A DNA stretch of 64,000 bases from Candidatus Woesearchaeota archaeon (GCA_965205335.1 OZ242164.1:576001-640000); one strand, 5' to 3'. Shown: positions 2,491-61,528, counted from the first letter of the stretch. A program made the numbers and translations. The notes: generated by a model not told the origin, from the letters alone.

Positions 2491-2618
2491 GGCTCTGTCC
2501 GAAAATTCAAGAGAACTTAAAATATTGTATCAGTAAAGCAATTTTTGACAAATTATTTTTTTCTTTGACTGAATATAGTTAGCATAGATTTTGGAAAAAC
2601 CAATTTCCGGACAGATGG
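2491..2618. mobile_element. MITE family A, copy 1 (128 bp, right TIR degraded)
   Basis: Left TIR GGCTCTGTCCGAAAATT; body aligns with 28795-28922; ends CCGGACAGATGG. Confidence 0.85.
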
Positions 2619-2628
2619 ACGAATTCGT

Positions 2629-2756
2629 GGCTCTGTCCGGAAAGTCAAGAGAGCATAAAATATTATATAAATAAAACAATTTTTGACAAATAATTTCTTT
2701 CTTTGATTGAACATAACTAGCATAGATTTTGAAGAAAACAATTTCAGGACAGAGCC
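2629..2756. mobile_element. MITE family A, copy 2 (128 bp, tandem with copy 1)
   Basis: GGCTCTGTCCGGAAAGT ... ATTTCAGGACAGAGCC; both tandem copies are followed by ACGAATTC. Confidence 0.85.
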
Positions 2757-2805
2757 ACGAATTCCAAAGTTTTATAAACAACTTGCTGTTAAAACTTCTT
2801 ATTTA

Positions 2806-3882
2806 ATGGACCTAAAATTCGGGCTAATTAGTCTGGGGAGTACCTCCTCTAAGATGATTTTGGAAGAAGCAAAAGCTTACTTTGATGTAGTAGATAGTAT
2901 TGACCTAAAAAAGATTGAAATCAAAATTAACGATAGTATATCAGTATTATATGATGGAGAATCTCTCCCTGAATATGACTGTCTATACTTTAAGGGGAGT
3001 TTTAAATACTCTACACTTCTTTTCTCTCTCTCTGAGATCTTTAAGGATAAATGTTATATTCCTATCAGACCAAACGCTCATATAATTGCTCATAACAAAT
3101 TTATGACTCATCTTCTCTTATCTTCCGATAAATCCCTTAAAATGCCTTCAACTTACTTTACAGCAAAGATTTCCGAAACTAAAGCTTTCTTAAAAACTCT
3201 TAATTATCCTATTATTATGAAATTTCCTTCTGGAACTCATGGTAAAGGAGTTATCTTTACAGAAAGTTATTCAAGCGCCAGTTCTATGATTGATGCTTTA
3301 GATGTCTTCGATCAGCCTGTAATCATTCAGGACTACGTTAATATAAAGTCAGATCTAAGAATTATTGTTGCAGGAGATAAAGTCGTTGGAGCTATGAGGA
3401 GGATTGCAAAAGCCGATGATGTCCGTGCAAATGCTCATGCAGGAGGCAATGCTGAACCCTATTTACCAACTCCTGATGTCAAAAGAATGTCAATTAATGC
3501 TGCAAAAAAAATTGGAGCTGATATTTGCGGTGTAGATATTATAGAAACTGATTATGGACCTCAGATTCTTGAAGTAAATACTTCACCTGGGCTTCAGAAG
3601 ATTACAGAGGTTACAAAGAAAAACATAGCAAAGGAAATTGTTGAGTTCCTATATGAGAAAACAAAGGAAAGAAAAGAAAGAAAAGACAAAACCATTGCAA
3701 AATCAATGGTTGGAGAATTGGGAATTGATGAGATTGGAATTCGTGAACTTGAAGGAGATATTAGAATAGTTAACGGAAAAATTGTTCTGCCTGAATTTGT
3801 ATCAAAGATGAGTGATTTTAGTGATGGGGAAAGCGTTAACTTAAAAGTTTCAAAAGACAGTGTAACAATTGGCAAAAACTAA
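2806..3882 (+). CDS. RimK-family ATP-grasp ligase with short C-terminal AbrB-like extension
   Basis: NKF, GTHGKGV, DLRIIV, RANAHAGG, GVDII, EVNTSPG; start ATG 2806 behind TATA at 2771. Confidence 0.88.
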   Translation: MDLKFGLISLGSTSSKMILEEAKAYFDVVDSIDLKKIEIKINDSISVLYDGESLPEYDCLYFKGSFKYSTLLFSLSEIFKDKCYIPIRPNAHIIAHNKFMTHLLLSSDKSLKMPSTYFTAKISETKAFLKTLNYPIIMKFPSGTHGKGVIFTESYSSASSMIDALDVFDQPVIIQDYVNIKSDLRIIVAGDKVVGAMRRIAKADDVRANAHAGGNAEPYLPTPDVKRMSINAAKKIGADICGVDIIETDYGPQILEVNTSPGLQKITEVTKKNIAKEIVEFLYEKTKERKERKDKTIAKSMVGELGIDEIGIRELEGDIRIVNGKIVLPEFVSKMSDFSDGESVNLKVSKDSVTIGKN

Positions 3883-4250
3883 TCTTTCAGAACACCTTTA
3901 AGCGTTCCTGAAACTTTAATTATTTCTATTTTTGCTGGAGTTTTATCTATTCTCTGAATCAGAGAAAGAACTCCAATTAGTTTCTCCTTTGTTCTCGTAT
4001 CAACTTTTATAACTAATTCCTGATTTTTTTCATTAAACTTATCTCTAAGAATCCAAAACCCTGATTTTGATATCTCAATACTCCCTAAAAACATTATAAC
4101 CTGCGATAATATGCTCTCTGATAGTTCCTTAAATTCAAATTTCTTATCAGAAACTATTTTTGCTCTTATGAACCTCTTCTTTGTTCTAAGCGTTGGCGAG
4201 AGAGGTTTTAGTTTTGAATCATAAGAAGCATTCTTAGTTTTATTTAACAT
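3879..4250 (-). CDS. Ribonuclease P protein component, Pop5/Rpp14 family
   Basis: LKPLSPTLRTKKRFI N-terminus and VSGTLK C-terminal motif. Confidence 0.85.
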   Translation of the reverse strand: MLNKTKNASYDSKLKPLSPTLRTKKRFIRAKIVSDKKFEFKELSESILSQVIMFLGSIEISKSGFWILRDKFNEKNQELVIKVDTRTKEKLIGVLSLIQRIDKTPAKIEIIKVSGTLKGVLKD

Positions 4251-4381
4251 GTATTAATTCTTTATAACTGCTCTTTTATTAAAAAGCTTTGTTATATCAA
4301 AATAAGAAGACGAAAATAATTAACCTCCAAAAGTTAAACATAAATATTATAAAGCAAAGACACAAAGTTAAATTTAGCACA

Positions 4382-5296
4382 ATGGCTACAAATTCAAAGA
4401 AAAAAACAAAACCAAAGAAAGCAACAGAGAATATGAAGGCAACAATGCATAGTGAACAGTGTGATACAATGGCTAATGGAAGTTGTTCAAGTAACATAAA
4501 CACATTACTCATAGTTTTAGTAGTGTTGGCTGTTATACAACTTATTTTCTCTGTAATGATGTTGTACCCTCAAGGCAATGATACAGATATGAACATGATG
4601 GATAAAGGTATGAATTTAGATGATTCCTTAATGAAAAAAATTGACTCAATAGAGAGCAAAGTAAATTCAATTGATAATTTCTTTGCATCAAATGTCCAAG
4701 GCTACAATCCTGGTTCAGATAATGGACAACAAGTTGCTCCTACACCAAGTGCTCCTTCTCAACCTGTTGGAGAGCCAGATATAAATGGAGAGCCAACTCT
4801 TGGAGATGCTAATGCTCCTGTAACAATTGTTGAGTATAGTGACTATGAATGTCCTTTCTGTGCAAGATTCTACAGCCAAACTCTTGGACAGTTAAAAAAA
4901 GAATACATAGACACTGGGAAAGTTAAACTTGTATACAAAGATTTCCCATTAGATTTCCACCAGAATGCAAAACCTGCAGCAATTGCAGCAAACTGTGTAC
5001 ATAAAGAATTAGGAAATGTGAAATATTTCGAATATCACGATATGATCTTTGAGAACCAACAAAGTCTTAACACACAGAATCTTAAAAAATGGGCTCTTGA
5101 ATTAGGAGTATCTGAGAATGCTTACGATACTTGTATTAATGACCCACAAATGGCAGCAGAAGTTGAGGAAGACACGAGAGAAGGAAGTTCATTTGGTGTT
5201 AGCGGAACTCCATCATTTCTAATCAATGGAGAACTTATTGTTGGAGCTGTACCTTACAGCCAGATTAAAGCAACAATTGATAGCAAATTATCATAA
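4382..5296 (+). CDS. Membrane-anchored DsbA/thioredoxin-fold disulfide oxidoreductase
   Basis: TM helix, GDANAPVTIVEYSDYECPFC, GTPSF. Confidence 0.9.
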   Translation: MATNSKKKTKPKKATENMKATMHSEQCDTMANGSCSSNINTLLIVLVVLAVIQLIFSVMMLYPQGNDTDMNMMDKGMNLDDSLMKKIDSIESKVNSIDNFFASNVQGYNPGSDNGQQVAPTPSAPSQPVGEPDINGEPTLGDANAPVTIVEYSDYECPFCARFYSQTLGQLKKEYIDTGKVKLVYKDFPLDFHQNAKPAAIAANCVHKELGNVKYFEYHDMIFENQQSLNTQNLKKWALELGVSENAYDTCINDPQMAAEVEEDTREGSSFGVSGTPSFLINGELIVGAVPYSQIKATIDSKLS

Positions 5297-5390
5297 ATTC
5301 TTTTTCTTTTAACATTTAAAAGAACACATAAATATCTAATATTATAGATTATATGAAAAGTATTATAAACAACAAATTCTCAAACTAAAT

Positions 5391-5828
5391 ATGATGAAAA
5401 AACACAAATTCAAAGGAATAGAATATAAAAGCACAGGTGAGTATGAAATTGCTAAATTTCTAACAAGTCTTGATTTAGAATTTGAATATGAATTTCCAAT
5501 AGCTATAGTTGATAATAAAAAACCAAAATTATGGTACCCAGATTTCTATCTAAAAGAATACCAAGTAGTGATAGAATATTTTGGAATGTACAATTATAAC
5601 AAAGTGTATAAAGACAATGCAGAACATAAAAAAGAGATATACAAACAATGTGGAATTCAGTTTGTTGCAATATATCACATAAGTAAAAATTGGCAGGAAT
5701 ATCTACTAAAAACAATTCTTACGCATCAGGAAATAAAAGCCAAAAAGATGACATCCATCTTAGATAAATTTGAGAAGAAAAATAAAGGTTTTGCAAAAAA
5801 ATTCAGATGGGATTTCTGGAAGCATTAG
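5391..5828 (+). CDS. PD-(D/E)XK-like nuclease domain protein
   Basis: KSxGExxIA...EYE...YPDFYL...IEYFG; paralogous to 58012-58776. Confidence 0.6.
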   Translation: MMKKHKFKGIEYKSTGEYEIAKFLTSLDLEFEYEFPIAIVDNKKPKLWYPDFYLKEYQVVIEYFGMYNYNKVYKDNAEHKKEIYKQCGIQFVAIYHISKNWQEYLLKTILTHQEIKAKKMTSILDKFEKKNKGFAKKFRWDFWKH

Positions 5829-5829
5829 A

Positions 5830-6150
5830 ATGAAAGAAATTAAAACTGAAAATAAATTACATGTATTTGTTTGTGTAAATGAGAGAATTAACAAAGATTC
5901 CTGCTCACATACAATTTCTCAAAAAGATTTTTATGAATTAAAAAAATGGGCGAAAGAAGAAGGACTAATTCCCAATATATTCATAACAAAAACAGGCTGT
6001 CTTGGATTCTGTAACCCTATTGGAGGATGCATTGCAATATATCCTAATAAGAAATTCTACTCCGAAATAAAATCAATAGACGAAATAAAGGAAATAATTA
6101 GAAAATTTTCAAAAGAGAATTTAGAAAATACTTTGGAAATGAAAGTTTAA
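5830..6150 (+). CDS. Thioredoxin-like [2Fe-2S] ferredoxin
   Basis: HVFVCVNER...SC...TGCLGFC...IYP pattern; start ATG 5830. Confidence 0.8.
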   Translation: MKEIKTENKLHVFVCVNERINKDSCSHTISQKDFYELKKWAKEEGLIPNIFITKTGCLGFCNPIGGCIAIYPNKKFYSEIKSIDEIKEIIRKFSKENLENTLEMKV

Positions 6151-6240
6151 GGAATATTTGCATAAATGAATTTAAACAATTTTGATAATATTGATTTCAC
6201 AAAACCTTATAAATCAAAATTCATTACTAATTAGTTAAGA

Positions 6241-7233
6241 GTGGTGTCTTTGTTAAGGGAGAAAACTAACAGTTCAGAAAACCATAGACTGGAACAAAGA
6301 TTAGAAGGTTGGAGAAGATTAGACTATTTAGGAAGAGAATACGTTAGATTATACAAAGATTTAGTCCATGAAGATGAGCAAGGTAATCCATTACCATTTG
6401 AAGAAACCCCTAAAATGAGATCTACTAAAGACGAAATTCTCACAAAAATTCAGCGTTATTTACATTATCTAATGAGGGAAATTGTTTTCAAAGGCAAAAC
6501 AATAAATCTGAGAGGTAGAGAAGTTGGACTTTCCCTATTTGGTAATCCAGAATGGGTGAATAATAGAGAGTATCTTCTCAATGAAGTAATTCAGGATGCA
6601 AACTTAGCAATTCTTGAAAATTTACATAAATACAATCCAGAATTTGCCTTCTCACAATATGTTTCTCTTATGTTTGTAACAGGTGTTAAAAGATATATGA
6701 ATAAAAGAAGAGGTTTAATCAGAATCTCCATTCATAGACAATCACCTTTTTTTTGGAAATGTCTAAGCAAATCAAACGGATTAGAAGATTTTGTTAGATT
6801 AGTTAATAAAGAAACAGGATTGAAGGATAATGCATGCTGTGCTATTTACTTTGGATTAACAAATGAGTATGAACCTCTCTTTGAAGAACCCCAATATAAA
6901 CAAGAAGATGGGAGTACTGCCCCTCTATCTTATGAGGAAAGCCTTGCAGATGAATCCTTATCAGGAAGAGACCCTTTAAAAATATTTGAGAAATTTGAAC
7001 TTCGTGAAAATACCAGATATGTTTTAAGTGAGACACGACTAACCAAACGTGAACGAGATATAATCTCTCTTCATTTTGGATTAGACAATAATAAAGAGTT
7101 AACTTTAGAAGAAATTGGAAAAAGGTATGGTGTAACAAGAGAGGCAATCCGACAGATTGAAGCGGAAGCATTTAAAAAATTACGCAGAAGAACTCTTAAT
7201 ACCCCTCACCTTAAAGAATATCTTGGTTCTTAA
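6241..7233 (+). CDS. Sigma-70 family RNA polymerase sigma factor homologue
   Basis: Region 2-like IQDANLAILENLHKYNPEFAFSQY; region 4 LTKRERDIISLHFGL...TLEEIGKRYGVTREAIRQIEAEAFKKLR. Confidence 0.85.
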   Translation: MVSLLREKTNSSENHRLEQRLEGWRRLDYLGREYVRLYKDLVHEDEQGNPLPFEETPKMRSTKDEILTKIQRYLHYLMREIVFKGKTINLRGREVGLSLFGNPEWVNNREYLLNEVIQDANLAILENLHKYNPEFAFSQYVSLMFVTGVKRYMNKRRGLIRISIHRQSPFFWKCLSKSNGLEDFVRLVNKETGLKDNACCAIYFGLTNEYEPLFEEPQYKQEDGSTAPLSYEESLADESLSGRDPLKIFEKFELRENTRYVLSETRLTKRERDIISLHFGLDNNKELTLEEIGKRYGVTREAIRQIEAEAFKKLRRRTLNTPHLKEYLGS

Positions 7234-7351
7234 ACTTAATCTCTATACAACTTTAGAAGTTGGAACACAGTAAACAAAAAAGAAGTTTTAAATACATATT
7301 TAAAACAACACATATTCTAATATACAAAGAAAATCTATATGGTGATAAGTA

Positions 7352-8395
7352 ATGAAATTAGTAAAAACAATTCTTAGCATATTTATAGTTGCCCTCACTC
7401 TATTTCTTGTATTTATCCTATGGGCTTCATCTCAAAGTGGCATAGCACACCAGATAAATGGCGTACACACTACAACAAACACATCCTATAACTCTCCCTA
7501 TGAAAGTTTAGACAACAATAAAATAATAATAGCAACATATAATATTGGATATTTTTCATATCTTTCAAATATGGGTTTATATATTGATAAGAATATCAAT
7601 GAATCCTTCCAGAAATTTGACAAACGCCCATCCAAGAACATATATGATACCGCAGAGAAGACATTTCAAAAAATAATGAAAGACAAACAAATAGATATAC
7701 TTGCCACACAGGAAGTTGATTTTAAAGCATATCGCTCATACCATGCTAATCAGGGAGAGATAATTACATCACTCCTATCATTTCCTTATTCTGCATACAT
7801 AGTAACATGGGATAAAACTTTTGTACCATACCCCTATTCATTTGATTACGCAACACGTGATGTAGTTTCAGGACAGGGAGTATTTTCACGCCACCGTATT
7901 ATCTCGCAGGAAACCATTAGCCTCCCTCAATCAGGCGGAATCCTTCGCCGGCACTTTGATTTTAAAAAAAAGATACAAATAATAAGTATGGAAATTGACA
8001 AAGAAGTTGTATATATCATACACGCGCATCTTGATGCCTTTGATGCAGATACCAACTTTAAACAGGGACAGATACTTTTTGATACATATAAAAAAACTAA
8101 AGAGAAGGGTCCAACAATTGTACTTGGCGATTTCAACAATGATATAAAAACAGAAAAAGGGGAGAATGCTCTCTCAATATTTTTAAAATCTGATGAGATC
8201 GCACATATCTCGCAAGAGCCTCTTGATGAAAATTTCTATACATACCCATCAAATAACCCCATATTTCCTATTGATCACATACTATATGACCCAGATCATT
8301 TCTCTGTTGAAAAATGGGAAGTACTTAATATCTCAGGGGTATCTGATCACCTTCCAGTTATCGCAACACTGCATCTTATTAACAAATCACAATAA
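7352..8395 (+). CDS. Endonuclease/exonuclease/phosphatase (EEP) family protein, N-terminal membrane anchor
   Basis: TYNIG, QEVD, HLDA, GDFN, IDHI, SDHLPV. Confidence 0.88.
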   Translation: MKLVKTILSIFIVALTLFLVFILWASSQSGIAHQINGVHTTTNTSYNSPYESLDNNKIIIATYNIGYFSYLSNMGLYIDKNINESFQKFDKRPSKNIYDTAEKTFQKIMKDKQIDILATQEVDFKAYRSYHANQGEIITSLLSFPYSAYIVTWDKTFVPYPYSFDYATRDVVSGQGVFSRHRIISQETISLPQSGGILRRHFDFKKKIQIISMEIDKEVVYIIHAHLDAFDADTNFKQGQILFDTYKKTKEKGPTIVLGDFNNDIKTEKGENALSIFLKSDEIAHISQEPLDENFYTYPSNNPIFPIDHILYDPDHFSVEKWEVLNISGVSDHLPVIATLHLINKSQ

Positions 8396-8418
8396 CCAAA
8401 AGGAAAATCAAAAAATCT

Positions 8419-13086: not shown

Positions 13087-14371
13087 TCAATTAATACTTT
13101 CTATTTCAACAGGCTTTGTACGATAAGTAACTAAAAACTCTGACTTATCGTACAACAGGTTAGCAGTAATTCCCAAGTTTTCCATTTCCATAATAAGAAC
13201 GCAAATATTATGGCATACAATTTTACATAACACTTCGTTTACCTGTGCTGTCCTGTTTTTAGATTTAACATTATCCCCAAACTTCTTTTTCACCATACTA
13301 AATGTAGTTTCAACATTACTTCGTTTATGATAATGTTCCATAAACTCATCCTGATTATAAAGGAAATAATGTAATGCTTTCTTCCAGATTATACCTCGTT
13401 TATGTTTGGATTTTTCATTTACATTATTTTTGAAAGGAATATAAGGAACTGCTCCTACTTCATTGATTGCTTCTAAGTTTTCCTTACTGATATACGCCTT
13501 ATCTCCTGAAAACTCCTCTATTGTGAAGACTTCATTAGTCTTATCCAGTAACTCTTTTAACTGTGGGCTGTCGTGGTCAAATTCAGACGTTATTTTAACT
13601 GCTGGAATGATGTTAGTATGAACTCCTGAAACTATGTGACATTTAACCCATTTCTTATATCTGTCCTGTGTGGAATGCTTATACTTATTCCAGTTCTGCA
13701 CTATTGACGTACCAAATCCCGAACTGTCTATTGCAAAATTGGTTTCAACTTCTTTCAATGGCTGTGATGTAATCTTAATCAGGTTGTGCAGAATCTCTGA
13801 AACCTCTTTTTTATTAAAGTAAACTTTAAGTGTTGTAAATGGAACTTCCTTAGTTATGTACTCAAAATCCTTGCTTAACTGCATATCACAGGTAAATCTA
13901 CGCCCAGAAACCCCTGAATACACTTTAAATATCATTGAGTTAAAATATCGTGTATAGGTGTTTTAGGTCGCCCAAACTTATAACCTTCCTCCTGTGAGTT
14001 CTTAACTAAATCGCTCAACAATTTCATAAACTTGTCCTTCTCTGTTTTCTGTGCCTCATCATAAGCACTCCAATTCTGTGTGTATATCTTCTTAGTTACT
14101 TCCTGTTTTAAAGTTCCGTCGGTATAAATTGTCTGAGTTACAGTATATTCTACTGCAAAGATATGCTTACATTTAGAGTGACGCTTCTTATAGTCCATAC
14201 AACTGCATTTAGCACCAAAACCATTACTCTTAACCACATAGCACATTTTAGTATTCGTTTGGCTCGTACTATCTACGTTGTATCATTCTCCTTCTTAATC
14301 TTGAAGTCCTTTGCAATTTCAAGACCTCTTTCTTGTCTTAAGTTTTGTTGTGGTTGTTTGTTTTGTACCAT
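13087..14371 (-). pseudogene. Frameshifted DDE transposase with N-terminal SWIM zinc finger
   Basis: ATG 14371; CSCxDY...CKH SWIM; AIDSSG, GDKAY and YHKRSNVETTFSMVK (YREK motif); frame breaks near 14280 and 13935. Confidence 0.85.
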
Positions 14372-14775
14372 AATAAGTAATAATTATTACTCTTAAAATA
14401 TTTATTAATACCTATACCTAATAATCCTGAAAAAATATCCTAAATTATTAAAGAGAATATAAAAATTGCTAAAAAGTCAAGAATAGAGGAATTAAAAGCA
14501 ATGTCCAAAATTAATGAAACTCCTATAATTTCAATTTTTGGTTCAATACAAAAAAACTAAGGACAAAAACATTTAAATATCTCTACCTTTTTATTGTATA
14601 AGAGATTTCGCTTAATTTCACTCGTGGTTGTTTGTTTTTAGGCGAAATCTCTCTTATTTTTAAATAATATATATAAATATTAAAGTTTAGTAAATTTTAT
14701 GACAAACCAAGTAATTTAAGACTTTTCGTACAGATTCCTTACTTTTCGTACAAAACACACTTTTCGTACAAAGCC
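13112..14775 (-). mobile_element. IS5-family (IS903-like ends) insertion sequence, 1664 bp
   Basis: TIRs GGCTTTGTACGATAAGT / ACTTTTCGTACAAAGCC; 9-bp TSD ATTTCAACA at 13103-13111 and 14776-14784; three ACTTTTCGTACA copies at 14721, 14741, 14759. Confidence 0.92.
14601..14660 (+). ncRNA. Candidate IS-encoded antisense hairpin RNA
   Basis: TTTAAATA at 14572-14579; stem 14601-14615/14638-14652; T-rich tail; 14624-14638 identical to 14350-14364, so antisense to transposase codons 3-8. Confidence 0.5.
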
Positions 14776-14820
14776 ATTTCAACAATAATCTTTATAAAAG
14801 AATTCCAATTATTTTCAAGT

Positions 14821-15012
14821 ATGATAATCCCAATAAGATGTTTTTCATGCGGTAAACCAGTAGGTCATTTATGGGAAGAATTTAAAACCCAAACTGAAAA
14901 AGGGAAACCAGTAAAAGAAGTTCTTGACTCTTTAGAATTAAAAAGATTCTGTTGCAGAACAGTTGTTATGTCCCATGTTGATTCAATAGATATTGTAGGA
15001 AAATACAAATAA
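14821..15012 (+). CDS. rpo10: DNA-directed RNA polymerase subunit N (Rpo10)
   Basis: MIIPIRCFSCGK...RFCCR. Confidence 0.97.
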   Translation: MIIPIRCFSCGKPVGHLWEEFKTQTEKGKPVKEVLDSLELKRFCCRTVVMSHVDSIDIVGKYK

Positions 15013-24128: not shown

Positions 24129-24278
24129 TTCCTTAATTCTCATATATTATTATACTAAATAAATATTAACTCATTCTAATTAGAACAAAAAACTTCACAC
24201 ATTTCTCACACCAAACAAATCATACAGTAGATTTTATAAATTAATTATAGTTAATTTTAATTATTTCTCATATTTCAA

Positions 24279-28693: not shown

Positions 28694-28794
28694 ACGAAAA
28701 GATATTTTTATTAATTTATAAACTCTCCTATATCCGAACTAAGAATATAATATTGGGGCTTTACTTTCTAACCTCACACATAAATTCTATTAGT

Positions 28795-28922
28795 GGCTCT
28801 GTCCGAAAATTCAAGAGAACTTAAAATATTGTATTAATAAAACAATTTTTGACAAATAATTTTTTTCTTTGATTGAAGATAGTTAGCATAGATTTTGGAA
28901 AAAACAATTTTCGGACAGAGCC
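28795..28922. mobile_element. MITE family A, intact copy (128 bp)
   Basis: Perfect 17-bp TIR GGCTCTGTCCGAAAATT; 8-bp TSD CTATTAGT at 28787-28794 and 28923-28930. Confidence 0.93.
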
Positions 28923-28965
28923 CTATTAGTAAAAGTTTTATAAATAAGAACTTTTTAAATGTACT

Positions 28966-29805
28966 ATGGAAAAAATTATAGACGCTCTTCTAAAAAAAAT
29001 AAAATCAAAACCACAAATTAAGCATTTAGAAGACAAATTTATACTAGAGAGAATTAGAAAGTTTCTCAAAACAAACGGTGATATTAGAGTAAAACTTGAA
29101 AAAGAATTTAAGTTAAAACAAGATAAAATAACTAAATCAAAAGTTTTCAAGGAAATTGTAAAAGCAATCAGATGGGAAATAGGAGTAATCTATGGAAGTT
29201 TTCTGACAAAGAGCTTTCCAAAAAAAAATAAATTAATTGAAAGCAATTACAAAGACTTACTAAAACTTCACAAATCAACAAAAGAGAGAATTGAACTATA
29301 TGAAAAAATTTACAGACAGATACTCAGATGGTATAAACCAAAAAAAATAGGGGACTTAGGATGCGGATTAAATCCTATCTCTTATGAAATAATTGAAAAA
29401 ATTCTAAAATACAAACCAGAATACTTTGCATCAGATTTAAACTCTGAGGACATAGAATTTTTAAATAACTACTTTGAATCAAACGACATTAAGGGAAAAG
29501 CCAAAGTATATAACATAACAAACCTTGAAATATTAAAAGATGAAGATTTTAAAGAGTGTGATTTAATATTCTTATTTAAGGTTCTTGACAGTTTTGAATT
29601 CATTAAAAAAAATATCTCAAAGAAATTGCTTGATGAAATAAAATCAAAACATATAGTTGTTTCATTTCCAATGAAATCCCTTATTTCAAAGAAGACTTTT
29701 GATTTCAGTAAAAGAAACTGGTTTAAGAATTACATAAATAAAATGAATTGGGATTACAAAGCATTTGAAGTTGAAAACGAAATATTTTATTTAATTAAAA
29801 AATAG
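28966..29805 (+). CDS. ArmA/Rmt/Sgm (FmrO)-like rRNA methyltransferase
   Basis: LHKSTKERI, DLGCGLNPIS, FLFKVL, VVSFPMKSL match the HxSTxER / DxxCGxNP / LLK / VSFPxxSL family pattern. Confidence 0.78.
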   Translation: MEKIIDALLKKIKSKPQIKHLEDKFILERIRKFLKTNGDIRVKLEKEFKLKQDKITKSKVFKEIVKAIRWEIGVIYGSFLTKSFPKKNKLIESNYKDLLKLHKSTKERIELYEKIYRQILRWYKPKKIGDLGCGLNPISYEIIEKILKYKPEYFASDLNSEDIEFLNNYFESNDIKGKAKVYNITNLEILKDEDFKECDLIFLFKVLDSFEFIKKNISKKLLDEIKSKHIVVSFPMKSLISKKTFDFSKRNWFKNYINKMNWDYKAFEVENEIFYLIKK

Positions 29806-30060
29806 ACAATGCATAAGCCACGTTCTGTAATTTCTGTAGCACCTAAACATTTAGGCAACGAAATTCGTATAATTCATCTAAGCGAGCATTAAACTCTTGC
29901 ACCAGTCAGTTTGTTTCAACTTTGAAGGATTTATAACGCTCAACTAATATCATCGCTAAATCAACCAAAGGGATTTTCTGTATAGGCTGTTTCCATCCTC
30001 TGACTATAACTAAGGGTGCGTGGACTTTCCTCCCAAAAGGGTTTATACTAATTGCCTATT
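29801..30060 (-). ncRNA. rnpB: RNase P RNA (compact, ~260 nt)
   Basis: GAGGAAAGUCCAC and ACAGAACGUGGCUUAU (P4); P1 AAUAGGCAAU/AUUGUCUAUU; P2 GUAUAA/UUAUAC; P5 GCACC/GGUGC; TATA at 30084-30091. Confidence 0.9.
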
Positions 30061-30106
30061 GCAATAAAACATACGAGATTTTATTTATAAAACTATCTCC
30101 ACTTGG

Positions 30107-30223
30107 GGCTTTGTACGAAAAGTAACAATTGCTTTAAAAAAGATTAAAACATTATATTATATATTGATAATTTTAATTATTTCTAATTTATTGTTAATTC
30201 TTAATGACTTTTCGTACAAAGCC
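30107..30223. mobile_element. MITE family B (117 bp), shares ends with the IS5-type element
   Basis: Perfect 17-bp TIR GGCTTTGTACGAAAAGT; 9-bp TSD TCCACTTGG at 30098-30106 and 30224-30232. Confidence 0.93.
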
Positions 30224-30288
30224 TCCACTTGGAAATTCTACAACCCTCACTAAAAAAATTTTATAAAAGGATGTCAATTAAACAATTT

Positions 30289-33071: not shown

Positions 33072-33122
33072 ATTGAAGATAGTTAGCATAGATTTTGGAA
33101 AAAACAATTTTCGGACAGAGCC
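33072..33122. mobile_element. MITE family A, right-end remnant (51 bp)
   Basis: Identical to 28872-28922 including right TIR AATTTTCGGACAGAGCC. Confidence 0.88.
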
Positions 33123-33166
33123 TTTTAAATAAAAGTTTTATAAATCAAAGTTTCTTAGTTTTACTT

Positions 33167-41022: not shown

Positions 41023-41180
41023 ACAAAGAACCCTACATAGTCATCCCATACTCTATCCAGAGAAATCATATAACTTATAGGACTTACTCCTTATCTATTA
41101 TAAACATCTATTTAATAATAAGTCTATGGACAAGACTTATAGAAGAAGAAAGTTTAGAAATTATAAAGAGGTTAAAATAA
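41019..41180 (+). CDS. 53-aa ORF coupled between hsdS and hsdR
   Basis: ATGA overlap with hsdS stop, GGAGGTG upstream, TAA ends 1 nt before hsdR ATG. Confidence 0.45.
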   Translation: MNKEPYIVIPYSIQRNHITYRTYSLSIINIYLIISLWTRLIEEESLEIIKRLK

Positions 41181-53398: not shown

Positions 53399-53436
53399 AC
53401 TGCTCATTTCTCAAATAAATTTCCCTTAAATAAAAC

Positions 53437-54066: not shown

Positions 54067-54112
54067 AGAGTTAGATAAGAAACCTCAGTTTAAAAATTCA
54101 TTGTATTTGAAG

Positions 54113-54451: not shown

Positions 54452-55273
54452 CTATAAACTAGATCTAATTTTTTGAGTTTCTTTGTCATAGGTTGCTAAA
54501 CCTAATTGACATAATTTAAATGAGATAGAAACAGGACTTCTACCAAGTTTTTTAGCAATATCTTCTAATGAATGTTTATCTTTATACATCGTTTCAACTT
54601 TTTGACCTTCTTCTTGAGTCCAATTCTTACCATGATTAGGATATCTCTCCAATAATTCTTCTGTAGTTGTTGAAGTATGTCTCTTATTTTTAATATCTGC
54701 AATTGAGAATTTTCTTTTATCTGTATTGATATATTTCTTATTTTCTCTTTCTAATAGTTTCTTGGGCTTTTCCCAATTTATTTCTTCAATTGGCATGAAA
54801 AATCCTGTCTCTTTCTTTAACCTCAAATGTTCTTTGTAATGACATCTATTACATAAAACTCTTATCATATCAATATTTTGTTGAAATTCATTAGGATATT
54901 TTTTAAACATTGCTGGCCAAATACTTTCATTCCTTATGTCGATATATTCATTAGGAATTTTAAGATCGTAAGAGAAATGATGTAAAGTTATATCTTTATC
55001 AGTTCCACAATGTTCACAATTCTTCCCCCTAACTTCAAAAACTTTCTCTCTAAAAAATTTACTTTTTAATTGTTTTCTAGCAAGATTAGAACTTCCAAAT
55101 AAAGTTAAATATTCTTTAGGGAATTTCAAAAAGTCCAAGACATTATCTTGCATAGTTTTTAGATCTTGTAATTGATTGTAACATTCTAATGAGCAATATA
55201 AAAATCCTTCTTTATCTGTGAAAGAATCATTTGGTAATTCATCTCTGCAAGAATTACAAGTAGGTACTTTCAT
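54452..55273 (-). CDS. HNH-like endonuclease with N-terminal Cys4 finger and C-terminal HTH
   Basis: CNSC...YCSLEC; CEHCG...LHH...LCNRCH...H; HGKNWTQEE...IAKKLGRS. Confidence 0.75.
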   Translation of the reverse strand: MKVPTCNSCRDELPNDSFTDKEGFLYCSLECYNQLQDLKTMQDNVLDFLKFPKEYLTLFGSSNLARKQLKSKFFREKVFEVRGKNCEHCGTDKDITLHHFSYDLKIPNEYIDIRNESIWPAMFKKYPNEFQQNIDMIRVLCNRCHYKEHLRLKKETGFFMPIEEINWEKPKKLLERENKKYINTDKRKFSIADIKNKRHTSTTTEELLERYPNHGKNWTQEEGQKVETMYKDKHSLEDIAKKLGRSPVSISFKLCQLGLATYDKETQKIRSSL

Positions 55274-55573
55274 TTTTCTTCTTTGATAGGACTCTTTTCT
55301 TTAATACTTAATTTGAATTTTTAAGTAAACTAATTCCCTTTATCATTTGTCTATCCATACACTTAATACTACATAGTTTTATATATATTTAGCCACACAT
55401 AATACACAAACTAAACACATATTTAAAGTTTTTGAACCACAACGTGTTAGTAATACCTCAAAAGGCTTGATAAAAATTATAATATTCAAATACAAAAGTG
55501 CTAAATCCCTAATTTACAAAGTAAATTTTTTAAAAGATTATATAAATCCTAAGTCATTCTTAATTGTATTAAA

Positions 55574-56570
55574 ATGATTAACCCTAAGCACAAAACAGAT
55601 ATTCATAAGTTTTTAGAATCATTTATTGGTTCTATTGAATTTGAGGAATTCCCTTTCTCCAAAAATGTCCTAAATAGGATTCTTGATTACTCCTTAAATG
55701 GAAAATCCATCAGAGGTTCTCTTGTTCTTGAGACTTACAAATCTGTATGGGGGCAATGATTTTGAAAAGGCTCTAAGGGTTGCAACTGGCGTTGAACTAT
55801 TTCACAGTTCAATTTTAATAATAGATGATATTATGGATTGCGATGATATAAGACGAGGCAAACCGTCAATACACAAGCAGTTTGAGAACTTTAATCTTAA
55901 CAGAATATCCAAAAAAGACGGAGAGAGTTACGCTATTTGTGTCTCGACAATTACAAGTTATCTTGGGTTTAAATTATTAAAAGATGTAGATTCTAAAATC
56001 ATTGATTTAATATTAAACAATTACTCTTTGACATATCTTGCCCAGATGCGAGAACTTCAAATTTCAGCAGATATAAGTATTTCAAGAGATGACATTGAAA
56101 AGGTTTACAGAACGAAAACAGGAATATACACCTTCTCGTGTCCTATATCAATTGGTATTTTGCTCTCAGGCAATGAATTTGATAACATGATTTCTGATTT
56201 AGGTGAAGAATTAGGATTATTGTTTCAAATAAAAGATGATTTGCTTGAAATTGAGAGTTCAACTGACGAAATAGGAAAACCCATCGCATCAGACATAGTA
56301 GCAAACAGAATGACTTTGCCAAGATTTCTTTTAAGAAGTGAAATCGATGACTCTGATGAATTGGAAAGATTTGATTCCATTTTTGGCAATGAAGTGAATG
56401 CAGATGATTTGGAGTTTCTAAGGTCAATATGTAAGAAATACAATCTAATTTTCAAATTGTATTCTTACATGGATGAAATTGAAGCAAGTATAAAATCCAA
56501 GTTAGGCAAACACAAATTAAAAGAAATGATAATTCGTTTTATGGATTATAACAGAGATAGAAAGAGATAG
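55574..56570 (+). CDS. Polyprenyl diphosphate synthase, split by a frameshift near 55745
   Basis: GKSIRG in first frame; DDIMD..RRGKP, KTG, FQIKDD in second frame. Confidence 0.85.
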
Positions 56571-56617
56571 GTTTGATAGGATTGTAATCAAATTAGGTTG
56601 TTTTCTTATATTGATAT

Positions 56618-57358
56618 TCATTTCAGATTAATTAAATCATTAGCATTTGTTATATTTACTTTGTCAACTTCTCCTGAATGAGTCCAGAAGATCTTACAAA
56701 TTATTTCTTTTCCAATTTCTCCTTCTCTGTGACCCTTTGCATTCCTATGAAACAAAAAAATTCCTCTGAATACATGAAAAAAACCTTCTTCTTCAGCAGG
56801 TGTAACACAAAAGGGAATTTTTAATTTTCCTGTATCTTTATTAAATGCTTTATTAACCAAATCAACACCAATATCACTTTGACTTAAATTTGCTTTCTCT
56901 CTTATTCTAACTTCTAAATGCCTACACGCATTCAAGACTAAATTCCGCCAGTCTTCAGAATCATAAGTCCTTTGACATGCTTCAATTAAGTTTTTATCAT
57001 GAATCCCTAAAGGAGAACTAACTTGAATTGAAGAATTCATAGATAATAACTTTTCTTGAGATAATTGTTTTAATTTAGAAATTCCTTCCCTTAAATCTGT
57101 CACTATTGAATCTGAACGTGAAATTTGTGAAGGAGGGATATAACTCCCATCATCAGACCTATACTTATTATAAAATCCGTCAATTTTCTCAATAAAAAAA
57201 TCAATTTTCCCTACATCAATTTCTTTAGAATTAACAGGATTATTCAATTCATAAACAAATGAGATAATTGATGAGAAAAATTTGTTATCGGATTCTACAT
57301 GGTCAAGTAATGCCTTCACATTATACTTTAATTTCTTTAACTCATCCATACAAATCAC
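56618..57358 (-). CDS. TIGR02391-like protein
   Basis: LEVRIR...GVDLVNKAF...EEEG...G...RNAKGH. Confidence 0.7.
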   Translation of the reverse strand: MICMDELKKLKYNVKALLDHVESDNKFFSSIISFVYELNNPVNSKEIDVGKIDFFIEKIDGFYNKYRSDDGSYIPPSQISRSDSIVTDLREGISKLKQLSQEKLLSMNSSIQVSSPLGIHDKNLIEACQRTYDSEDWRNLVLNACRHLEVRIREKANLSQSDIGVDLVNKAFNKDTGKLKIPFCVTPAEEEGFFHVFRGIFLFHRNAKGHREGEIGKEIICKIFWTHSGEVDKVNITNANDLINLK

Positions 57359-57413
57359 CTACAGGTATCTATTTAGAGTACCTAACAATTCATAGATATT
57401 TTCTTTTGAAAAG

Positions 57414-57488
57414 TAGCGAAGAGTGGATTTGAACCACTGACCTCCGGGTTATGAGCCCGACGGGCACTCCTAACTGCCCCACTTCGCT
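57414..57488 (-). tRNA. Initiator tRNA-Met(CAU)
   Basis: A1-U72, GGG/CCC anticodon stem around CTCATAA, GTTCAAATC. Confidence 0.96.
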
Positions 57489-57511
57489 ATAATAAAAAAT
57501 ATTTAAAAAAT

Positions 57512-57880
57512 TCAGCCAATAATTCTTGGTTTATCCTTTGGATTCCTTGAAATATAATCAGAAATTCTAAAAAACTTACCGCCTGACTTCTCAATCTTTT
57601 CAAGTGCACTATAAGATGCATTAAACCCAATAACTGTAACCTTCTTCGTTAAATTGCCATCACCAAGCACCTTGCCGCAAACAATAACACTCTCGCCATC
57701 CTTTGCATGCCTGTCAATCTTTGATAAATTCACTTGGGATCTCTGACTCGCAGAACCTGCTAACTTAGCAGCAACTGCTCTCCAAGTGCCAACACCTGAC
57801 TTATTTGAAAACTTCTTCAAACCAGAAATTACATCAAACAATTCCTTATCAGTTGTCTTAGTCTTAGGAAAACTCGCCAT
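57512..57880 (-). CDS. rpl18e: 50S ribosomal protein L18e (eL18)
   Basis: W..VA..L, VNLSKI, GKVLGDG, A.EKIEKSGG. Confidence 0.93.
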   Translation of the reverse strand: MASFPKTKTTDKELFDVISGLKKFSNKSGVGTWRAVAAKLAGSASQRSQVNLSKIDRHAKDGESVIVCGKVLGDGNLTKKVTVIGFNASYSALEKIEKSGGKFFRISDYISRNPKDKPRIIG

Positions 57881-58011
57881 TGCAATTAAAATAAATCCCA
57901 ATTACTTTATAAAGACTTTGATTTAGAGCCTAAAATTAAAAAAAATGCTTCTCAAAAAACCTCCTAACATCCCAATTCATCTAACACAAATCAGACACCA
58001 GAAAATAAATA

Positions 58012-58776
58012 TTACGAATAACTCACATTACTCAATGGATAACAATATTCAAAAATACCAAACTTACTCCCAAAACTGCAAACGCAAAACCAATTACTCA
58101 TATTATAACCCTCTTCTAAATCAGCATGTCTTTGAACATAACTACTATTCACCACTAAAACCACATCACCTTCTCCACAAAAATCCATGCAATCAGGCTT
58201 AGACTCAAAAACTGAAACATTAGTATGAACATAATACTCACCATCAATAACCAATTTACTTAAACTATCAGAACATATAACCCCAACCTGCTCAACATCA
58301 GAACCGCTAATCAAACCATCCCAATCATGCAAATCAATATCAAACAAATAAAAAGTTAAAAGTAATAAAACAGAAACAAAAACCATAACCTTAAACAAGA
58401 AAAATATAAACCTAAACAGCCAGCTATAAAAAATTCCTTTTGCTTTTCTTAACACTTCCCTCTGCCATACAGAACTTGGAGTATCCGGATACACAGATAT
58501 AAGCCCATAACTATTATGCCTGTAAATTTCCTTCTTACCTTTCGAAATACTATCATAATTAGAATCGCCCACCATCCCAAAATATTCAATGATCAACTTC
58601 CTCTTAGGAATATAAAAATCAGGATAAAATATACTCTCCTTACCCTTATCATAAGGCCTCTTTAAAATTAACCTCTTCTCATACACAAACTTAATTCTCT
58701 TCTCCGTAAGAAACTTGGCAATCCTTAACTCGCCCCTGCTCTTATACTTCACCTCATTAAACTTATAACTCTTCAT
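58012..58776 (-). CDS. PD-(D/E)XK-like domain + TM + Cys-rich C-terminus
   Basis: KSRGELRIA...YE...YPDFYI...IEYFG then hydrophobic helix. Confidence 0.65.
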   Translation of the reverse strand: MKSYKFNEVKYKSRGELRIAKFLTEKRIKFVYEKRLILKRPYDKGKESIFYPDFYIPKRKLIIEYFGMVGDSNYDSISKGKKEIYRHNSYGLISVYPDTPSSVWQREVLRKAKGIFYSWLFRFIFFLFKVMVFVSVLLLLTFYLFDIDLHDWDGLISGSDVEQVGVICSDSLSKLVIDGEYYVHTNVSVFESKPDCMDFCGEGDVVLVVNSSYVQRHADLEEGYNMSNWFCVCSFGSKFGIFEYCYPLSNVSYS

Positions 58777-58997
58777 CTTCTCTTAAACAAAACCAAATAA
58801 AGCAAATATGCCACAACCAATATCAACACAACCTTTCCTGCAACAATAAGAAACTCAGCAACCTCTTCCCTAAACTTATACACAACAAAACAGACAATCA
58901 ATAACAAAAGTGCAAACACTAAAAAAATAAAACTTAATTTGGAGAACCTCTTAAACAAAGATTTCCTGCGGCTTGAACGCCTAAAAAACTTACCCAT
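58773..58997 (-). CDS. Small 2-TM membrane protein
   Basis: Basic N-terminus, two hydrophobic helices, overlap with next gene. Confidence 0.6.
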   Translation of the reverse strand: MGKFFRRSSRRKSLFKRFSKLSFIFLVFALLLLIVCFVVYKFREEVAEFLIVAGKVVLILVVAYLLYLVLFKRR

Positions 58998-59183
58998 ATG
59001 AATTTTCTTACTTTCCCATTTATATAATTAATCAAGTAAAAAACAAAAGATACCAAAAAATCCTAAACCTCACTAACCTTTCTACAAAATAACAAACTCC
59101 ATCAACCAACCATAAACCTTACAAAACTAACAAACTCCACTAAGTATTACAAAAATTACACACACTAAAGAACTATAAAAAAA

Positions 59184-60431
59184 TTACAAATCACTAAAAT
59201 CAAGAGTTGCAAACAAATCATCATACATCTCAGATCTTCTAATTTGCTTAACACTACCATCCTCTTTTAACAACAACTCAGAAGACCTTAACTTCCCATT
59301 ATAATTAAAACCCATTGAATGTCCATGTGCTCCAGCATCATGAATTACAATAATATCACCTATCTCAACTTTGGGAAGTTTCCTATCAACTGCAAACTTA
59401 TCATTATTCTCACACAAAGACCCAACAATATCATAAACATCAGTTAGTTCTTCATCCTCTTTGCCAAGAACACTTATATGATGATAAGCCCCATACATTC
59501 CCGGTCTCATAAGATTTGCCATGCACGCGTCAACACCAATATAATTCTTATAAATATCCTTCATATGAATAACCTTCGTAATTAAATAACCATAAGGACC
59601 TGTAATCATTCTTCCTGATTCCAAATATATCTTTAACTCACTCATACCCTCACTAACTGCTTTTTCATACTCATCCTTAATCCCCAAACCTAAATCCATC
59701 AAATCAATTGCTTTCTGGGAAGGCTCATATGGAATTCCAATTCCACCTCCTAAATTCACAAACTCAAACTCAATCCCAACCTCTTTTGAAATTTCAATAA
59801 CAAGTTCAAACATCATCTTAGCAGAATGAACAAAATAATTAACATCAAGTTCATTTGATACTACCATAATATGAATTCCAAACCTCTTAACACCCTTCTC
59901 CTTGCATATCCTATATGCTCTAAAAATCTGTTCTCGGGTTAAACCATATTTTGCTTCCTCTGGCTTTCCTATAATAATATTACCCCCTTTCAAAGGACCT
60001 GGATTATATCTAAAACAAATCAACTCAGGCAGTCTAACATTATCCTCAAGAAATTTAATGTGGTTAATATCATCCAAATTAATTACTGCTCCCATCTTAA
60101 TAGCCTTCTCATATTCCTCTACCATAGTATTATTCGAAGTAAACATAACATTCTCACCAGTAATTCCAACCTTCTCACATAAAAGAAGTTCGGCAATAGA
60201 TGAACAATCCACACCAAAACCAACTCTCTGTATTATTTTCAGAAGATGGGGATTAGGTGATGCTTTAAGTGCATAATACTCCCTAAATCCCTTATTCCAC
60301 GAAAAAGCCTTACTTAGTTTCTCTGCATTAGCGACAATTCCCTTCTCATCATAAATATAAAAAGGTGTGGGATACTTCTTCATAACCTCAATAATCTTCT
60401 CTTTTGTAAAAGGCAAAACTTTCTTAACCAT
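59184..60431 (-). CDS. lysA: Diaminopimelate decarboxylase
   Basis: PTPFYIYDE, YALKA, NLGGG, ESGR, RPGMYG, GSLCENND, YNG. Confidence 0.92.
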   Translation of the reverse strand: MVKKVLPFTKEKIIEVMKKYPTPFYIYDEKGIVANAEKLSKAFSWNKGFREYYALKASPNPHLLKIIQRVGFGVDCSSIAELLLCEKVGITGENVMFTSNNTMVEEYEKAIKMGAVINLDDINHIKFLEDNVRLPELICFRYNPGPLKGGNIIIGKPEEAKYGLTREQIFRAYRICKEKGVKRFGIHIMVVSNELDVNYFVHSAKMMFELVIEISKEVGIEFEFVNLGGGIGIPYEPSQKAIDLMDLGLGIKDEYEKAVSEGMSELKIYLESGRMITGPYGYLITKVIHMKDIYKNYIGVDACMANLMRPGMYGAYHHISVLGKEDEELTDVYDIVGSLCENNDKFAVDRKLPKVEIGDIIVIHDAGAHGHSMGFNYNGKLRSSELLLKEDGSVKQIRRSEMYDDLFATLDFSDL

Positions 60432-60536
60432 AACAAAAGCCAAAAACACCTCTTTTAAAAATATTGCGATTATGAAATAATTATGTACATTCTTAGAATA
60501 TCAAAAGCCTCATAATTTAATAAGATGTTTTACAAG

Positions 60537-61478
60537 TGTGTAGTCGGGTGACATATGTCACCAGTTAAAAAATTCTTTATTTTCCCAATTTCATGAAGAA
60601 ATATGAAATCCGCAAAGAATTTGTTAAGTTAAGAGTGAAGCAATTTTCTTATTCAAAATGTCAGAAAATTTTGAAGAGTAAATTTGATTATAATATTACT
60701 ATTCGTACTTTAAAACGTTGGCAACGCTGTTTTAATAAAGAATCCAATTGGGATTTTTGTGACAACTCTCAAAGACCAAATAAAATCTGGTATAAAGTAA
60801 CCTTGGACATTGAATCTAAAATTATCAATTTAAGAACTGCAACAGGATGGGGAGCTAAAAAGCTCCGTGATTCTTTACATTTAGACTTACATCCAGCCAC
60901 TGTGAATGAAGTTTTGAAACGCAACAATTTAACTAGAAAAGAACATAACAGAGGTCAACGTAAGAAATATGTTCGTTTTCAAAGAAAACATGCAAATTCG
61001 CTTTGGCACATAGATGATAGCGAATTTGGAAAAAAAAGCAAAATAATTGCTGTAGTTGATGATGCTACAAGATATTGTTTAGGAATCTTACAGGTTCCTA
61101 CTGTAACAACTATGGTTGTTACTGAATTTCTTGATAATTTAACTAAGGAGTTTGGAACTCCAACTCAAATAATTAGTGACAATGGTGCTCCCTATGGATT
61201 AAATAGCAAACATTCTAAGTTTGATGTTTGGTGTCGGAGAAGAAAGATTGAACATATTCGGACTAGAGTAAAGAGACCTCAAACAAATGGAAAAGTCGAA
61301 AGACTTTTCGGAACAATTGAGAGAGAAATTAAATATTGTAATGAGGATTTAGAGAAATTTAGAATGAGATATAATCATTTTAGACCTCATGAGAGCTTGT
61401 TTTTACAAACTCCAGCAAATGAATTTTATTCATTTGAAAGAATTTTTTAACTGGTGACATATGTCACCCGACTACACA
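60537..61478 (+). mobile_element. IS481-family insertion sequence, 942 bp
   Basis: Perfect 42-bp TIRs starting TGT; 15-bp TSD AAGATGTTTTACAAG at 60522-60536 and 61479-61493. Confidence 0.93.
60593..61450 (+). CDS. IS481-type DDE transposase (rve core)
   Basis: WHID, VDDATR, SDNG, PQTNGKVER, YNHFRPH; stop codon lies inside right TIR. Confidence 0.93.
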   Translation: MKKYEIRKEFVKLRVKQFSYSKCQKILKSKFDYNITIRTLKRWQRCFNKESNWDFCDNSQRPNKIWYKVTLDIESKIINLRTATGWGAKKLRDSLHLDLHPATVNEVLKRNNLTRKEHNRGQRKKYVRFQRKHANSLWHIDDSEFGKKSKIIAVVDDATRYCLGILQVPTVTTMVVTEFLDNLTKEFGTPTQIISDNGAPYGLNSKHSKFDVWCRRRKIEHIRTRVKRPQTNGKVERLFGTIEREIKYCNEDLEKFRMRYNHFRPHESLFLQTPANEFYSFERIF

Positions 61479-61528
61479 AAGATGTTTTACAAGTTATGTT
61501 TATAAATACTTAAATTTGGATTTATAAC

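Follow-up and report, generated by a model that had tools for sequence, protein, structure and literature searches.

Transposable elements of two superfamilies lie in fixed register upstream of BRE-TATA promoters in a Woesearchaeota genome

Elements and boxes of the window

We analyzed a stretch of 64,000 nucleotides (nt), here called the window, from a Candidatus Woesearchaeota archaeon (GCA_965205335.1, OZ242164.1), in which transposable elements stand at fixed distances upstream of TATA boxes. The window covers positions 576,001-640,000 of one contig of 1,199,749 bp (30.9% G+C), which is the whole genome. The organism, treated here as a DPANN-type archaeon, belongs to an order with well over a hundred families and genome sizes of 0.6-2.3 Mb. 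Our own gene calls, based on open reading frames (ORFs), give 1185 genes and 87% coding DNA; these calls are crude and were used for controls only. The genome has one gene for the TATA-binding protein TBP, one for the transcription factor TFB, and one TnpB-like gene.

A preliminary description of the window had reported seven insertion sites of insertion sequences (IS) or of MITEs (miniature inverted-repeat transposable elements), all abutting a promoter. Reading the sites base by base, we confirm six of the seven. The remaining one, an element called "MITE-C" that was given without coordinates and placed 16 nt from TTTTTAAA, was not found in a search for inverted repeats with target-site duplications (TSDs), among all repeated segments, or beside any TTTTTAAA or TTTAAAAA in the window. 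The elements and their boxes are listed below; offset means the number of nucleotides between the element end and the first T of the box.

2491..2618, plus strand: MITE-A, copy 1 of a tandem pair, at the distal, older position; right end degenerate; BLAST match to positions 1-125 of the MITE-A reference
2629..2756, plus strand: MITE-A, copy 2 of the tandem pair, promoter-proximal; flanks GAATTCGT and ACGAATTC; BLAST match
2771..2778, plus strand: TTTATAAA box, 14 nt past the MITE-A end (ACGAATTC + CAAAGT); ATG 35 nt after the first T
13112..14775, minus strand: IS-B, an IS5-type element of 1664 bp; inverted repeats GGCTTTGTACGA(T/A)AAG
14791..14798, plus strand: TTTATAAA box, 15 nt past the IS-B end (TSD of 9 + ATAATC)
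28795..28922, plus strand: reference copy of MITE-A (128 bp), with inverted repeats GGCTCTGTCCGAAAAT and a perfect 8-bp TSD CTATTAGT
28937..28944, plus strand: TTTATAAA box, 14 nt past the MITE-A end (TSD + AAAAGT); ATG 29 nt after the first T
30084..30091, minus strand: TTTATAAA box, 15 nt from the left end of MITE-B; directed toward the RNase P RNA candidate on the minus strand (29802-30059)
30107..30223, plus strand: MITE-B, 117 bp; inverted repeats of IS-B; perfect 9-bp TSD TCCACTTGG (30098-30106 and 30224-30232)
33072..33122, plus strand: truncated MITE-A, right 51 nt only; BLAST match
33137..33144, plus strand: TTTATAAA box, 14 nt past the truncated MITE-A end (TTTTAAAT + AAAAGT); ATG 30 nt after the first T
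60537..61478, plus strand: IS-C, an IS481-type element of 942 bp; perfect inverted repeats of 42 nt starting TGTGTAGTCGGG
61499..61506, plus strand: TTTATAAA box, 20 nt past the IS-C end (TSD of 15 + TTATG); ATG 30 nt after the first T

The distances first reported for these sites agree with our reading: 14 nt for MITE-A (ends at 2756, 28922, and 33122; boxes starting at 2771, 28937, and 33137), 15 nt both for the IS5-type element (14775 to 14791) and for MITE-B (30107 to 30091), and, for the IS481-type element, a 15-bp TSD plus 5, where AAGATGTTTTACAAG and TTATG lead into TTTATAAA at 61499-61506. The TSD lengths proposed alongside them are visible at 28795, 13112, 30107, and 60537; none can be seen at the truncated copy (33072-33122), and the copy at 2629-2756 has GAATTCGT on one side and ACGAATTC on the other. 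The two copies of CTATTAGT around the MITE-A reference occupy 28787-28794 and 28923-28930, the 9-bp TSD of IS-B, ATTTCAACA, lies at 13103-13111 and 14776-14784, and the 15-bp TSD of IS-C, AAGATGTTTTACAAG, at 60522-60536 and 61479-61493. The reference copy of MITE-A has two further genomic copies that are 100% identical to it.

IS-B carries two ORFs, 13087-13935 (DDE_Tnp_1, 282 amino acids [aa]) and 13932-14246 (SWIM zinc finger, 104 aa), that overlap by 4 nt and may represent either a two-gene IS or a programmed frameshift. The DDE_Tnp_1 frame extends 25 nt beyond the left end of the element at 13112. Downstream from the box at 14791, the ATG of ORF 14821-15012 is 30 nt from the first T. The transposase ORF of IS-C, with an rve domain, is at 60593-61450. 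The RNase P RNA candidate that the box next to MITE-B faces matches Rfam RF00373 over the full model length (59.6 bits, which is below the gathering score of 84; E = 3e-16); a gathering-threshold Rfam scan misses it.

Element families and the genome-wide register

Family A comprises the 1030-bp IS-A and the 128-bp MITE-A, whose inverted repeats are identical. IS-A encodes a DDE_Tnp_1 transposase of 304 aa and is present in three identical copies (genome positions 819885, 923042, and 927606) in addition to diverged or broken ones. MITE-A is a MITE by its short, noncoding sequence, its IS-A inverted repeats, its TSD, and its 55 BLAST hits in the genome; MITE-B, 117 bp long and with the inverted repeats of IS-B, is likewise a MITE and a derivative of IS-B. 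The DDE_Tnp_1 domain (PF01609) is matched with E = 8.9e-22 in IS-A and 1.9e-24 in IS-B, and NF033579 (IS5_2) is the best NCBIfam model for both (109.1 and 131.6 bits, respectively, with a cut-off of 140). TSDs are 8 bp in family A (in 27 of the 43 paired elements the two copies differ at no more than one position) and 9 bp in family B.

The genome also holds 19 matches to the rve domain (PF00665) above the cut-off. The IS-C transposase matches it with E = 8.9e-11, and the best model for IS-C, the only rve element scanned, is NF033577 (IS481; 187.6 bits, cut-off 224). Two more rve families were distinguished: family D, of ∼924 bp and with inverted repeats starting TGTGCAGTAAAG, and family E, of 984 bp, whose inverted repeats start with TGTATTGTCCGC and whose transposase has 326-335 aa. 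IS481-type elements form nested piles at genome positions 541410-542890 and 988542-990464 (E, a C derivative, and D at one promoter; E within D). There are thus two unrelated transposase superfamilies, DDE_Tnp_1 and rve, with several lineages each. The preliminary description had spoken of different families: MITE-A, MITE-B, and its "IS5" are all IS5-type, with similar inverted repeats (GGCTCTGTCC in family A and GGCTTTGTAC in IS-B), so that the window shows two superfamilies and not four independent families.

Across the genome, the register proposed from the window recurs as a spike at a single offset, far above chance. The 43 paired elements of family A, together with its 36 solo ends, give 122 ends altogether. 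Among these, 57 have TTTATAAA with at most one mismatch at offset 14 (8-bp TSD + 6), where 0.98 are expected (p = 6.6e-85); every other offset below 40 has at most two ends (one at offset 15). The expectation comes from all 153,809 intergenic positions taken in both reading directions, which give a probability of 0.0064-0.0083 for such a box at any given offset. At 39 ends, the first box met is an exact TTTATAAA at offset 14. A box is present on at least one side of 40 of the 43 paired elements and on both sides of three.

The other families show their own fixed offsets. In family B, nine of 25 ends have the box at offset 15 (p = 2.5e-13), and in family C eight of 30 at offset 20 (TSD of 15 + 5; p = 8e-11). 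Family D has three of 12 ends at offset 20 and one at 18. Five left ends represent family E, with boxes at 20, 22, 22, and 23; one copy of this family, nested inside another IS, has no box. In the IS481-type elements, the TSD is 14-16 bp, and the TATA box follows it after 5-7 bp. The promoter-proximal cut is always 5-7 bp from the TATA box, alike for TSDs of 8, 9, or 15 bp. A family-blind test gives the same distances: upstream of 640 promoter-like boxes, repeated DNA starts at 14 nt in 32 sites, at 15 nt in four, and at 20 nt in 10, while 14 more sites at distance 0 are boxes inside repeats. Double sites of the form TATA-N20-TATA are neither preferred nor enriched (16 are unoccupied, like other spacings), and therefore give no sign of symmetric two-box recognition.

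Short termini of other, unclassified element types also adjoin boxes across the genome (for example, at 24183, 794925, 896169, and 990993): those reading GGTWCTGTTMAGAAT... and GAGTTGTTAAGTTAAAGGGG at 14 nt and one reading GGTGTAGAAC...CCCCACC at 13 nt.

Counts of this kind would be inflated if the element, its TSD, and the box had been copied jointly by duplication or recombination, and two pairs of sites do share flanks (genome positions 147223/520859 and 31786/54456). However, deduplication leaves 55 of the 57 occupied family A flanks, each of the 27 clean insertions has a TSD and a downstream gene of its own, and most flanks are not paralogous beyond the box. We give this explanation of the spike next to no credence.

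We also looked for the register in other genomes. Among 31 genomes searched (30 relatives and the source genome itself), full-length MITE-A DNA occurs only in the source genome, with one copy of 72% identity in relative G011; MITE-A itself is private to the source genome in this set, and orthologous empty sites cannot be collected by a search with its DNA. Relatives of the IS5-type elements were found at 15 loci of other genomes. Two of these, in two other families of the order, hold a convincing element, and both have a 9-bp TSD followed by 6 bp and then TTTTTAAA (L053) or TTTTTATA (L047); L036 is cut by a contig end, and the rest have no resolved ends. A scan of contigs of other genomes with the IS-A transposase gave only three loci, none with both ends.

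For the IS481-type elements, we examined 18 loci in other genomes; at 11 of them, inverted repeats are accompanied by a TSD of 12 bp or more, and the ends of two of these were corrected by eye. Read by eye, seven of these 11 (L065, L068, L070, L072, L074, L082, and L084) have a TSD of 15-16 bp, 5-7 further bp, and then a TATA-like box. The other four (L071, L076, L079, and L089) have no such box. We found 38 metagenome relatives, most of 47%-68% identity, and scanned 37 for ends. A stricter end-finding method resolved only four of the 37 loci; a looser one, with a jitter of ∼2 nt, was therefore used, and its result is a peak at 18-22 nt rather than a single offset. Over 53 deduplicated ends, TATA-like hits number 7, 3, 7, 4, and 3 at offsets 18 to 22 (24 in total), with a background of 0.89 hits per offset outside 19-23. 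A box at 19-23 is present on at least one side of 16 of 35 loci.

Two features of the window lie apart from these elements: an Rfam match to the DUF3800-X RNA at 41024-41093 on the minus strand (40.2 against a gathering score of 38.2) and about ten tandem repeats of 120 nt, 65%-89% alike, at 62003-63370, which are probably within a gene for a repetitive protein.

The promoter as target

The octamer TTTATAAA is the commonest AT-only octamer of intergenic DNA in this genome (299 fully intergenic occurrences and 108 in coding DNA). At 310 of 640 promoter-like sites, a start codon follows the first T of the box by 29-30 nt (for example, window 28937-28968), a spacing that suggests mostly leaderless mRNAs. 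For 41 of the 57 occupied boxes, an ORF of 30 codons or more has its start codon 26-45 nt off, on the side opposite the element; the mode is again 29-30 nt, with 23 of the 41. The background for this test, over TATA-like sites in both orientations, is 21% (1572/7528). The boxes are thus promoters, apparently of leaderless genes.

Elements invariably occupy the BRE side of a box, upstream of the 6 bp that directly precede it. Reviews place the A-rich TFB recognition element (BRE), which is read by TFB, directly upstream of the TATA box (PMC7289017), and the preliminary description had assigned the 6-bp spacer to it. The spacers bear this out with an A-rich pattern. In 27 reconstructed empty sites, the target logo has information only in the box, in an A at -3 (26 of 27), and in a base other than T at -7; the TSD and the distal flank have none. 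These two positions and the fixed distance from box to start are what identifies the sites as BRE-TATA core promoters. A weaker form of the same logo is seen in 582 unoccupied promoter-like sites. The A at BRE position -3 is found in 52 of 55 occupied sites, compared with 72% of other promoter-like sites.

Insertion is aimed, keyed to the BRE-TATA core promoter, and the register is not a survival bias, because the youngest copies are in register, sites are re-used across families, and relatives share the register. If insertion were random or merely AT-biased, purifying selection might retain only those copies that spare the upstream gene and the promoter: A genome that is 87% coding would lose insertions in genes or between box and start codon. 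Such selection is the probable reason that elements always lie upstream and that no spacer is shorter than the BRE. It does not explain the confinement of 57 ends to offset 14, with two at most at any other offset below 40. Nor is space short, since at least 30 bp of further noncoding DNA is available past the insertion point in 20 of the 27 reconstructed sites (median, 78). Copies that are identical, and hence recent, are already in register: all three of IS-A and two of the three 100%-identical copies of MITE-A. The very same 8-15 bp are also re-used by different families. The statement made from the window, that selection alone is insufficient, therefore stands, and we consider survival of random insertions very improbable as the source of the register.

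The third identical MITE-A copy, at genome position 502957, is intergenic and adjoins AAAAGT + TTTAACTA, ∼100 bp from a real box. At seven of the 27 clean family A insertions, the terminus of another family lies 0-8 nt past the distal TSD, and these sites have therefore been re-used. The tandem MITE-A pair of the window (2491-2756) is another case of two elements at one box. At genome positions 664537-665624, an element of ∼830 bp, which begins GGTTCTGTTCAA... and finishes ...CAACCAGTACC, has a MITE-A copy on either side, and the same 8 bp, GTGTTCAA, are present at all four junctions. This arrangement fits a two-sided site with boxes TTTATAAA and TTAATATT 20 bp apart, into which the older element inserted first and a MITE-A then at each copy of the TSD. 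For the reference MITE-A, one contig from a different study (run X1) joins window position 28786 to 28923 and skips 136 nt (128 + 8), as an empty site would; with a depth of 2.7 and a shorter side of 37 letters, this lone contig is no more than a hint of such a site. A joint at MITE-B in run X2, whose shorter side has just 20 letters, was left out of account, as were loose-end junctions, several of which by eye match family A flanks of this genome.

In our reading, active insertion sequences and their miniature derivatives choose their target rather than land at random. The staggered cut is placed with its promoter-proximal edge 5-7 bp upstream of the consensus BRE-TATA (TTTATAAA) of a leaderless gene, and the element thus parks just outside the promoter, leaving promoter and gene undamaged. 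What recognizes the promoter could be the transposase itself, which, within the transpososome, would read BRE/TATA DNA, through its sequence or its shape, to one side of the target and at about one helical turn from the cut. We favor this direct reading tentatively, at somewhat short of an even chance. The IS5-type and IS481-type families would then have gained promoter reading independently, because in an 87%-coding genome only insertions at a promoter edge leave a viable host.

Several observations argue for direct reading. The register is rigid and without jitter (57 ends at 14 and one at 15). At called genes, family A occupies 20 of 155 exact boxes, 10 of 218 with one mismatch, and none of 201 with two, a steep fall; the denominators for mismatched boxes include operon-internal genes that have no promoter, and the fall is for that reason not clean evidence. 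Box variants at positions 4, 7, and 8 are used (10 of 113), and those at positions 1, 2, 3, 5, and 6 are not (0 of 100), common as they are upstream of genes. Finally, the young copy at 502957 stands beside a look-alike and not beside a gene promoter.

Other observations weigh against direct reading. The information in the logo (the base other than T at -7, the A at -3, and the box) coincides exactly with what is read by TFB and TBP. DDE transposases usually have symmetric consensuses for their intrinsic targets; here the landmark is one-sided. Two unrelated superfamilies share the proximal boundary despite TSDs of 8, 9, and 15 bp.

These same features suit factor guidance, in which the transpososome would dock at the TBP-TFB-DNA complex or its DNA bend, or be halted there, and attack the first free DNA upstream of the BRE. 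We rate this as a serious possibility, ranking just below direct reading in our estimate. It would account for target information restricted to BRE and TATA box, with the preference for A at -3, for a landmark on one side only, and for a proximal spacer of 5-7 bp common to IS5-type elements (TSD of 8 or 9) and IS481-type elements (TSD of 14-16). With a single TBP and a single TFB, the genome would offer one uniform landmark. There are also precedents: the integrase of Ty3 works with Brf1/TBP (PMC4600332), and the same hypothesis has been put forward for TnGBS (PMC3942029). However, family A is never found at called genes with such common one-mismatch boxes as TATATAAA (0 of 30) and CTTATAAA (0 of 24), nor at those with TATTTAAA, which has two mismatches (0 of 25), all of them presumably bound by TBP, and its young copy at the look-alike is at no gene promoter. 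Docking on proteins would also need separate evolution in each family; since either kind of targeting must evolve family by family, the convergence of the two superfamilies does not separate the models and gives factor guidance no advantage. A predicted complex of the IS-A transposase with TBP and the core of TFB (residues 105-305), run without controls, scored 0.00 and has no weight either way. The preliminary description had the transposases attack at the upstream edge of the TBP-TFB complex, an interpretation that our data support in part. The target information is confined to BRE and TATA, a result that fits direct reading of the DNA as well as factor guidance; our preference for direct reading is slight, and the data do not separate the two.

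The inverted repeats of families A and B read CGAAAAT and CGAAAAG at positions 10-16 (for example, in the repeats at window 28795-28810 and 30107-30122), which resembles the A-rich spacers, such as AAAAGT at 28931-28936 and 33131-33136. The likeness is a weak point for direct reading: It may have arisen by chance in AT-rich DNA, or it may hint that the domain binding the repeats reads the target as well.

Known systems and significance

The ISH1 and IS903 groups of the IS5 family in ISfinder have DDE_Tnp_1 transposases of ∼300 aa, short inverted repeats starting GG, TSDs of 8-9 bp, and MITE derivatives. IS-A and IS-B share these group traits and differ in that IS5_2 scores below its cut-off and that IS-B has an extra SWIM zinc-finger ORF. 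We know of no report of promoter-register targeting for either group. The likeness of the IS481-type elements to the IS481 family lies in an rve transposase of ∼290 aa, inverted repeats starting TGT, and a long TSD; the differences are the match of IS-C to NF033577, which is below the cut-off, and the TSD of 14-16 bp with a TATA box 5-7 bp beyond it. In the openly searchable literature, we found no report of IS481-family insertion in register with a TATA box. More generally, no report of insertion in register with an archaeal BRE/TATA was found in the literature searched, which lies outside subscription journals and supplements (including the tables of PMC3942029 and PMC11602168). A term search for "TATA" gave nothing in two MITE surveys (PMC10969869, PMC11602168), the second of which lists a Woesearchaea genome among the most MITE-dense of archaea. 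For the archaeal ISH6 (p-MULT 2), target choice has been linked tentatively to AT-rich, promoter-like DNA, and an AT-rich motif is duplicated (PMC3942029). ISH6 duplicates the motif itself (AANATNTT), whereas here the box is outside the TSD, at a fixed distance, and intact.

Aimed insertion explains how a 1.2-Mb genome with 87% coding DNA can bear transposon copies and fragments numbering well over a hundred, all of them standing just outside core promoters. At consensus boxes, roughly one gene in five has an element: Of the 155 called genes with an exact box, 20 have family A, three have family B, and up to 10 have a TGT-type end by a loose pattern. IS5-type elements land ∼37-44 bp, and IS481-type elements 35-50 bp, upstream of the leaderless start codon. 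The register marks promoters in uncultured archaea, and promoter-aimed transposases might serve as tools for insertion at safe sites. It also raises the question of whether an archaeal transposase reads promoter DNA or a TBP-TFB complex homologous to the eukaryotic one. If factor guidance proved true, base-pair-precise integration like that of Ty3 with TFIIIB would exist in archaea, in unrelated superfamilies, widespread in DPANN and perhaps in Asgard archaea.

The preliminary description had likened the insertions to the safe-harbor strategy of Ty3. The likeness holds for targeting of the promoter edge; a bacterial precedent in TnGBS and ISLre2 (PMC3942029) had been overlooked. In Saccharomyces cerevisiae, integration of Ty3 is directed by TFIIIB (Brf1, TBP) to within a few base pairs of RNA polymerase III start sites (PMC4600332). 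Common to both systems are base-pair precision, a position beside an initiation complex that contains TBP, and a safe-haven logic, and TFB is the archaeal homolog of TFIIB/Brf. In contrast, Ty3 is a long terminal repeat retrotransposon, and the elements here are DNA transposons for which contact with TBP/TFB is only hypothetical.

In bacteria, the integrative and conjugative elements of the TnGBS type, the ISLre2 family, and the ISKra4 group, all with Mutator-like DDE transposases, target sigma-A promoters, with insertion 15-17 bp upstream of the -35 box, which is regarded as a means of gene avoidance (Brochet 2009; Guerillot 2014; PMC3942029). Contact with the initiation complex has been proposed for these elements by analogy with Ty3 (PMC3942029). 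The Woesearchaeota elements resemble these as prokaryotic DDE elements at a fixed distance upstream of a core promoter, a functional likeness and not a membership. The bacterial systems are Mutator-like and use the -35 box; those described here use an archaeal BRE-TATA with DDE_Tnp_1 (IS5-type) and rve (IS481-type) transposases, and the Pfam matches of the scanned elements' transposases are to DDE_Tnp_1 and rve only, with no Mutator-type domain. Members of p-MULT 3 insert in one orientation (PMC3942029), whereas orientation here is mixed (16 left and 11 right in the 27 reconstructed sites). Our results extend promoter-directed transposition to the BRE-TATA promoters of archaea and to two further transposase superfamilies.

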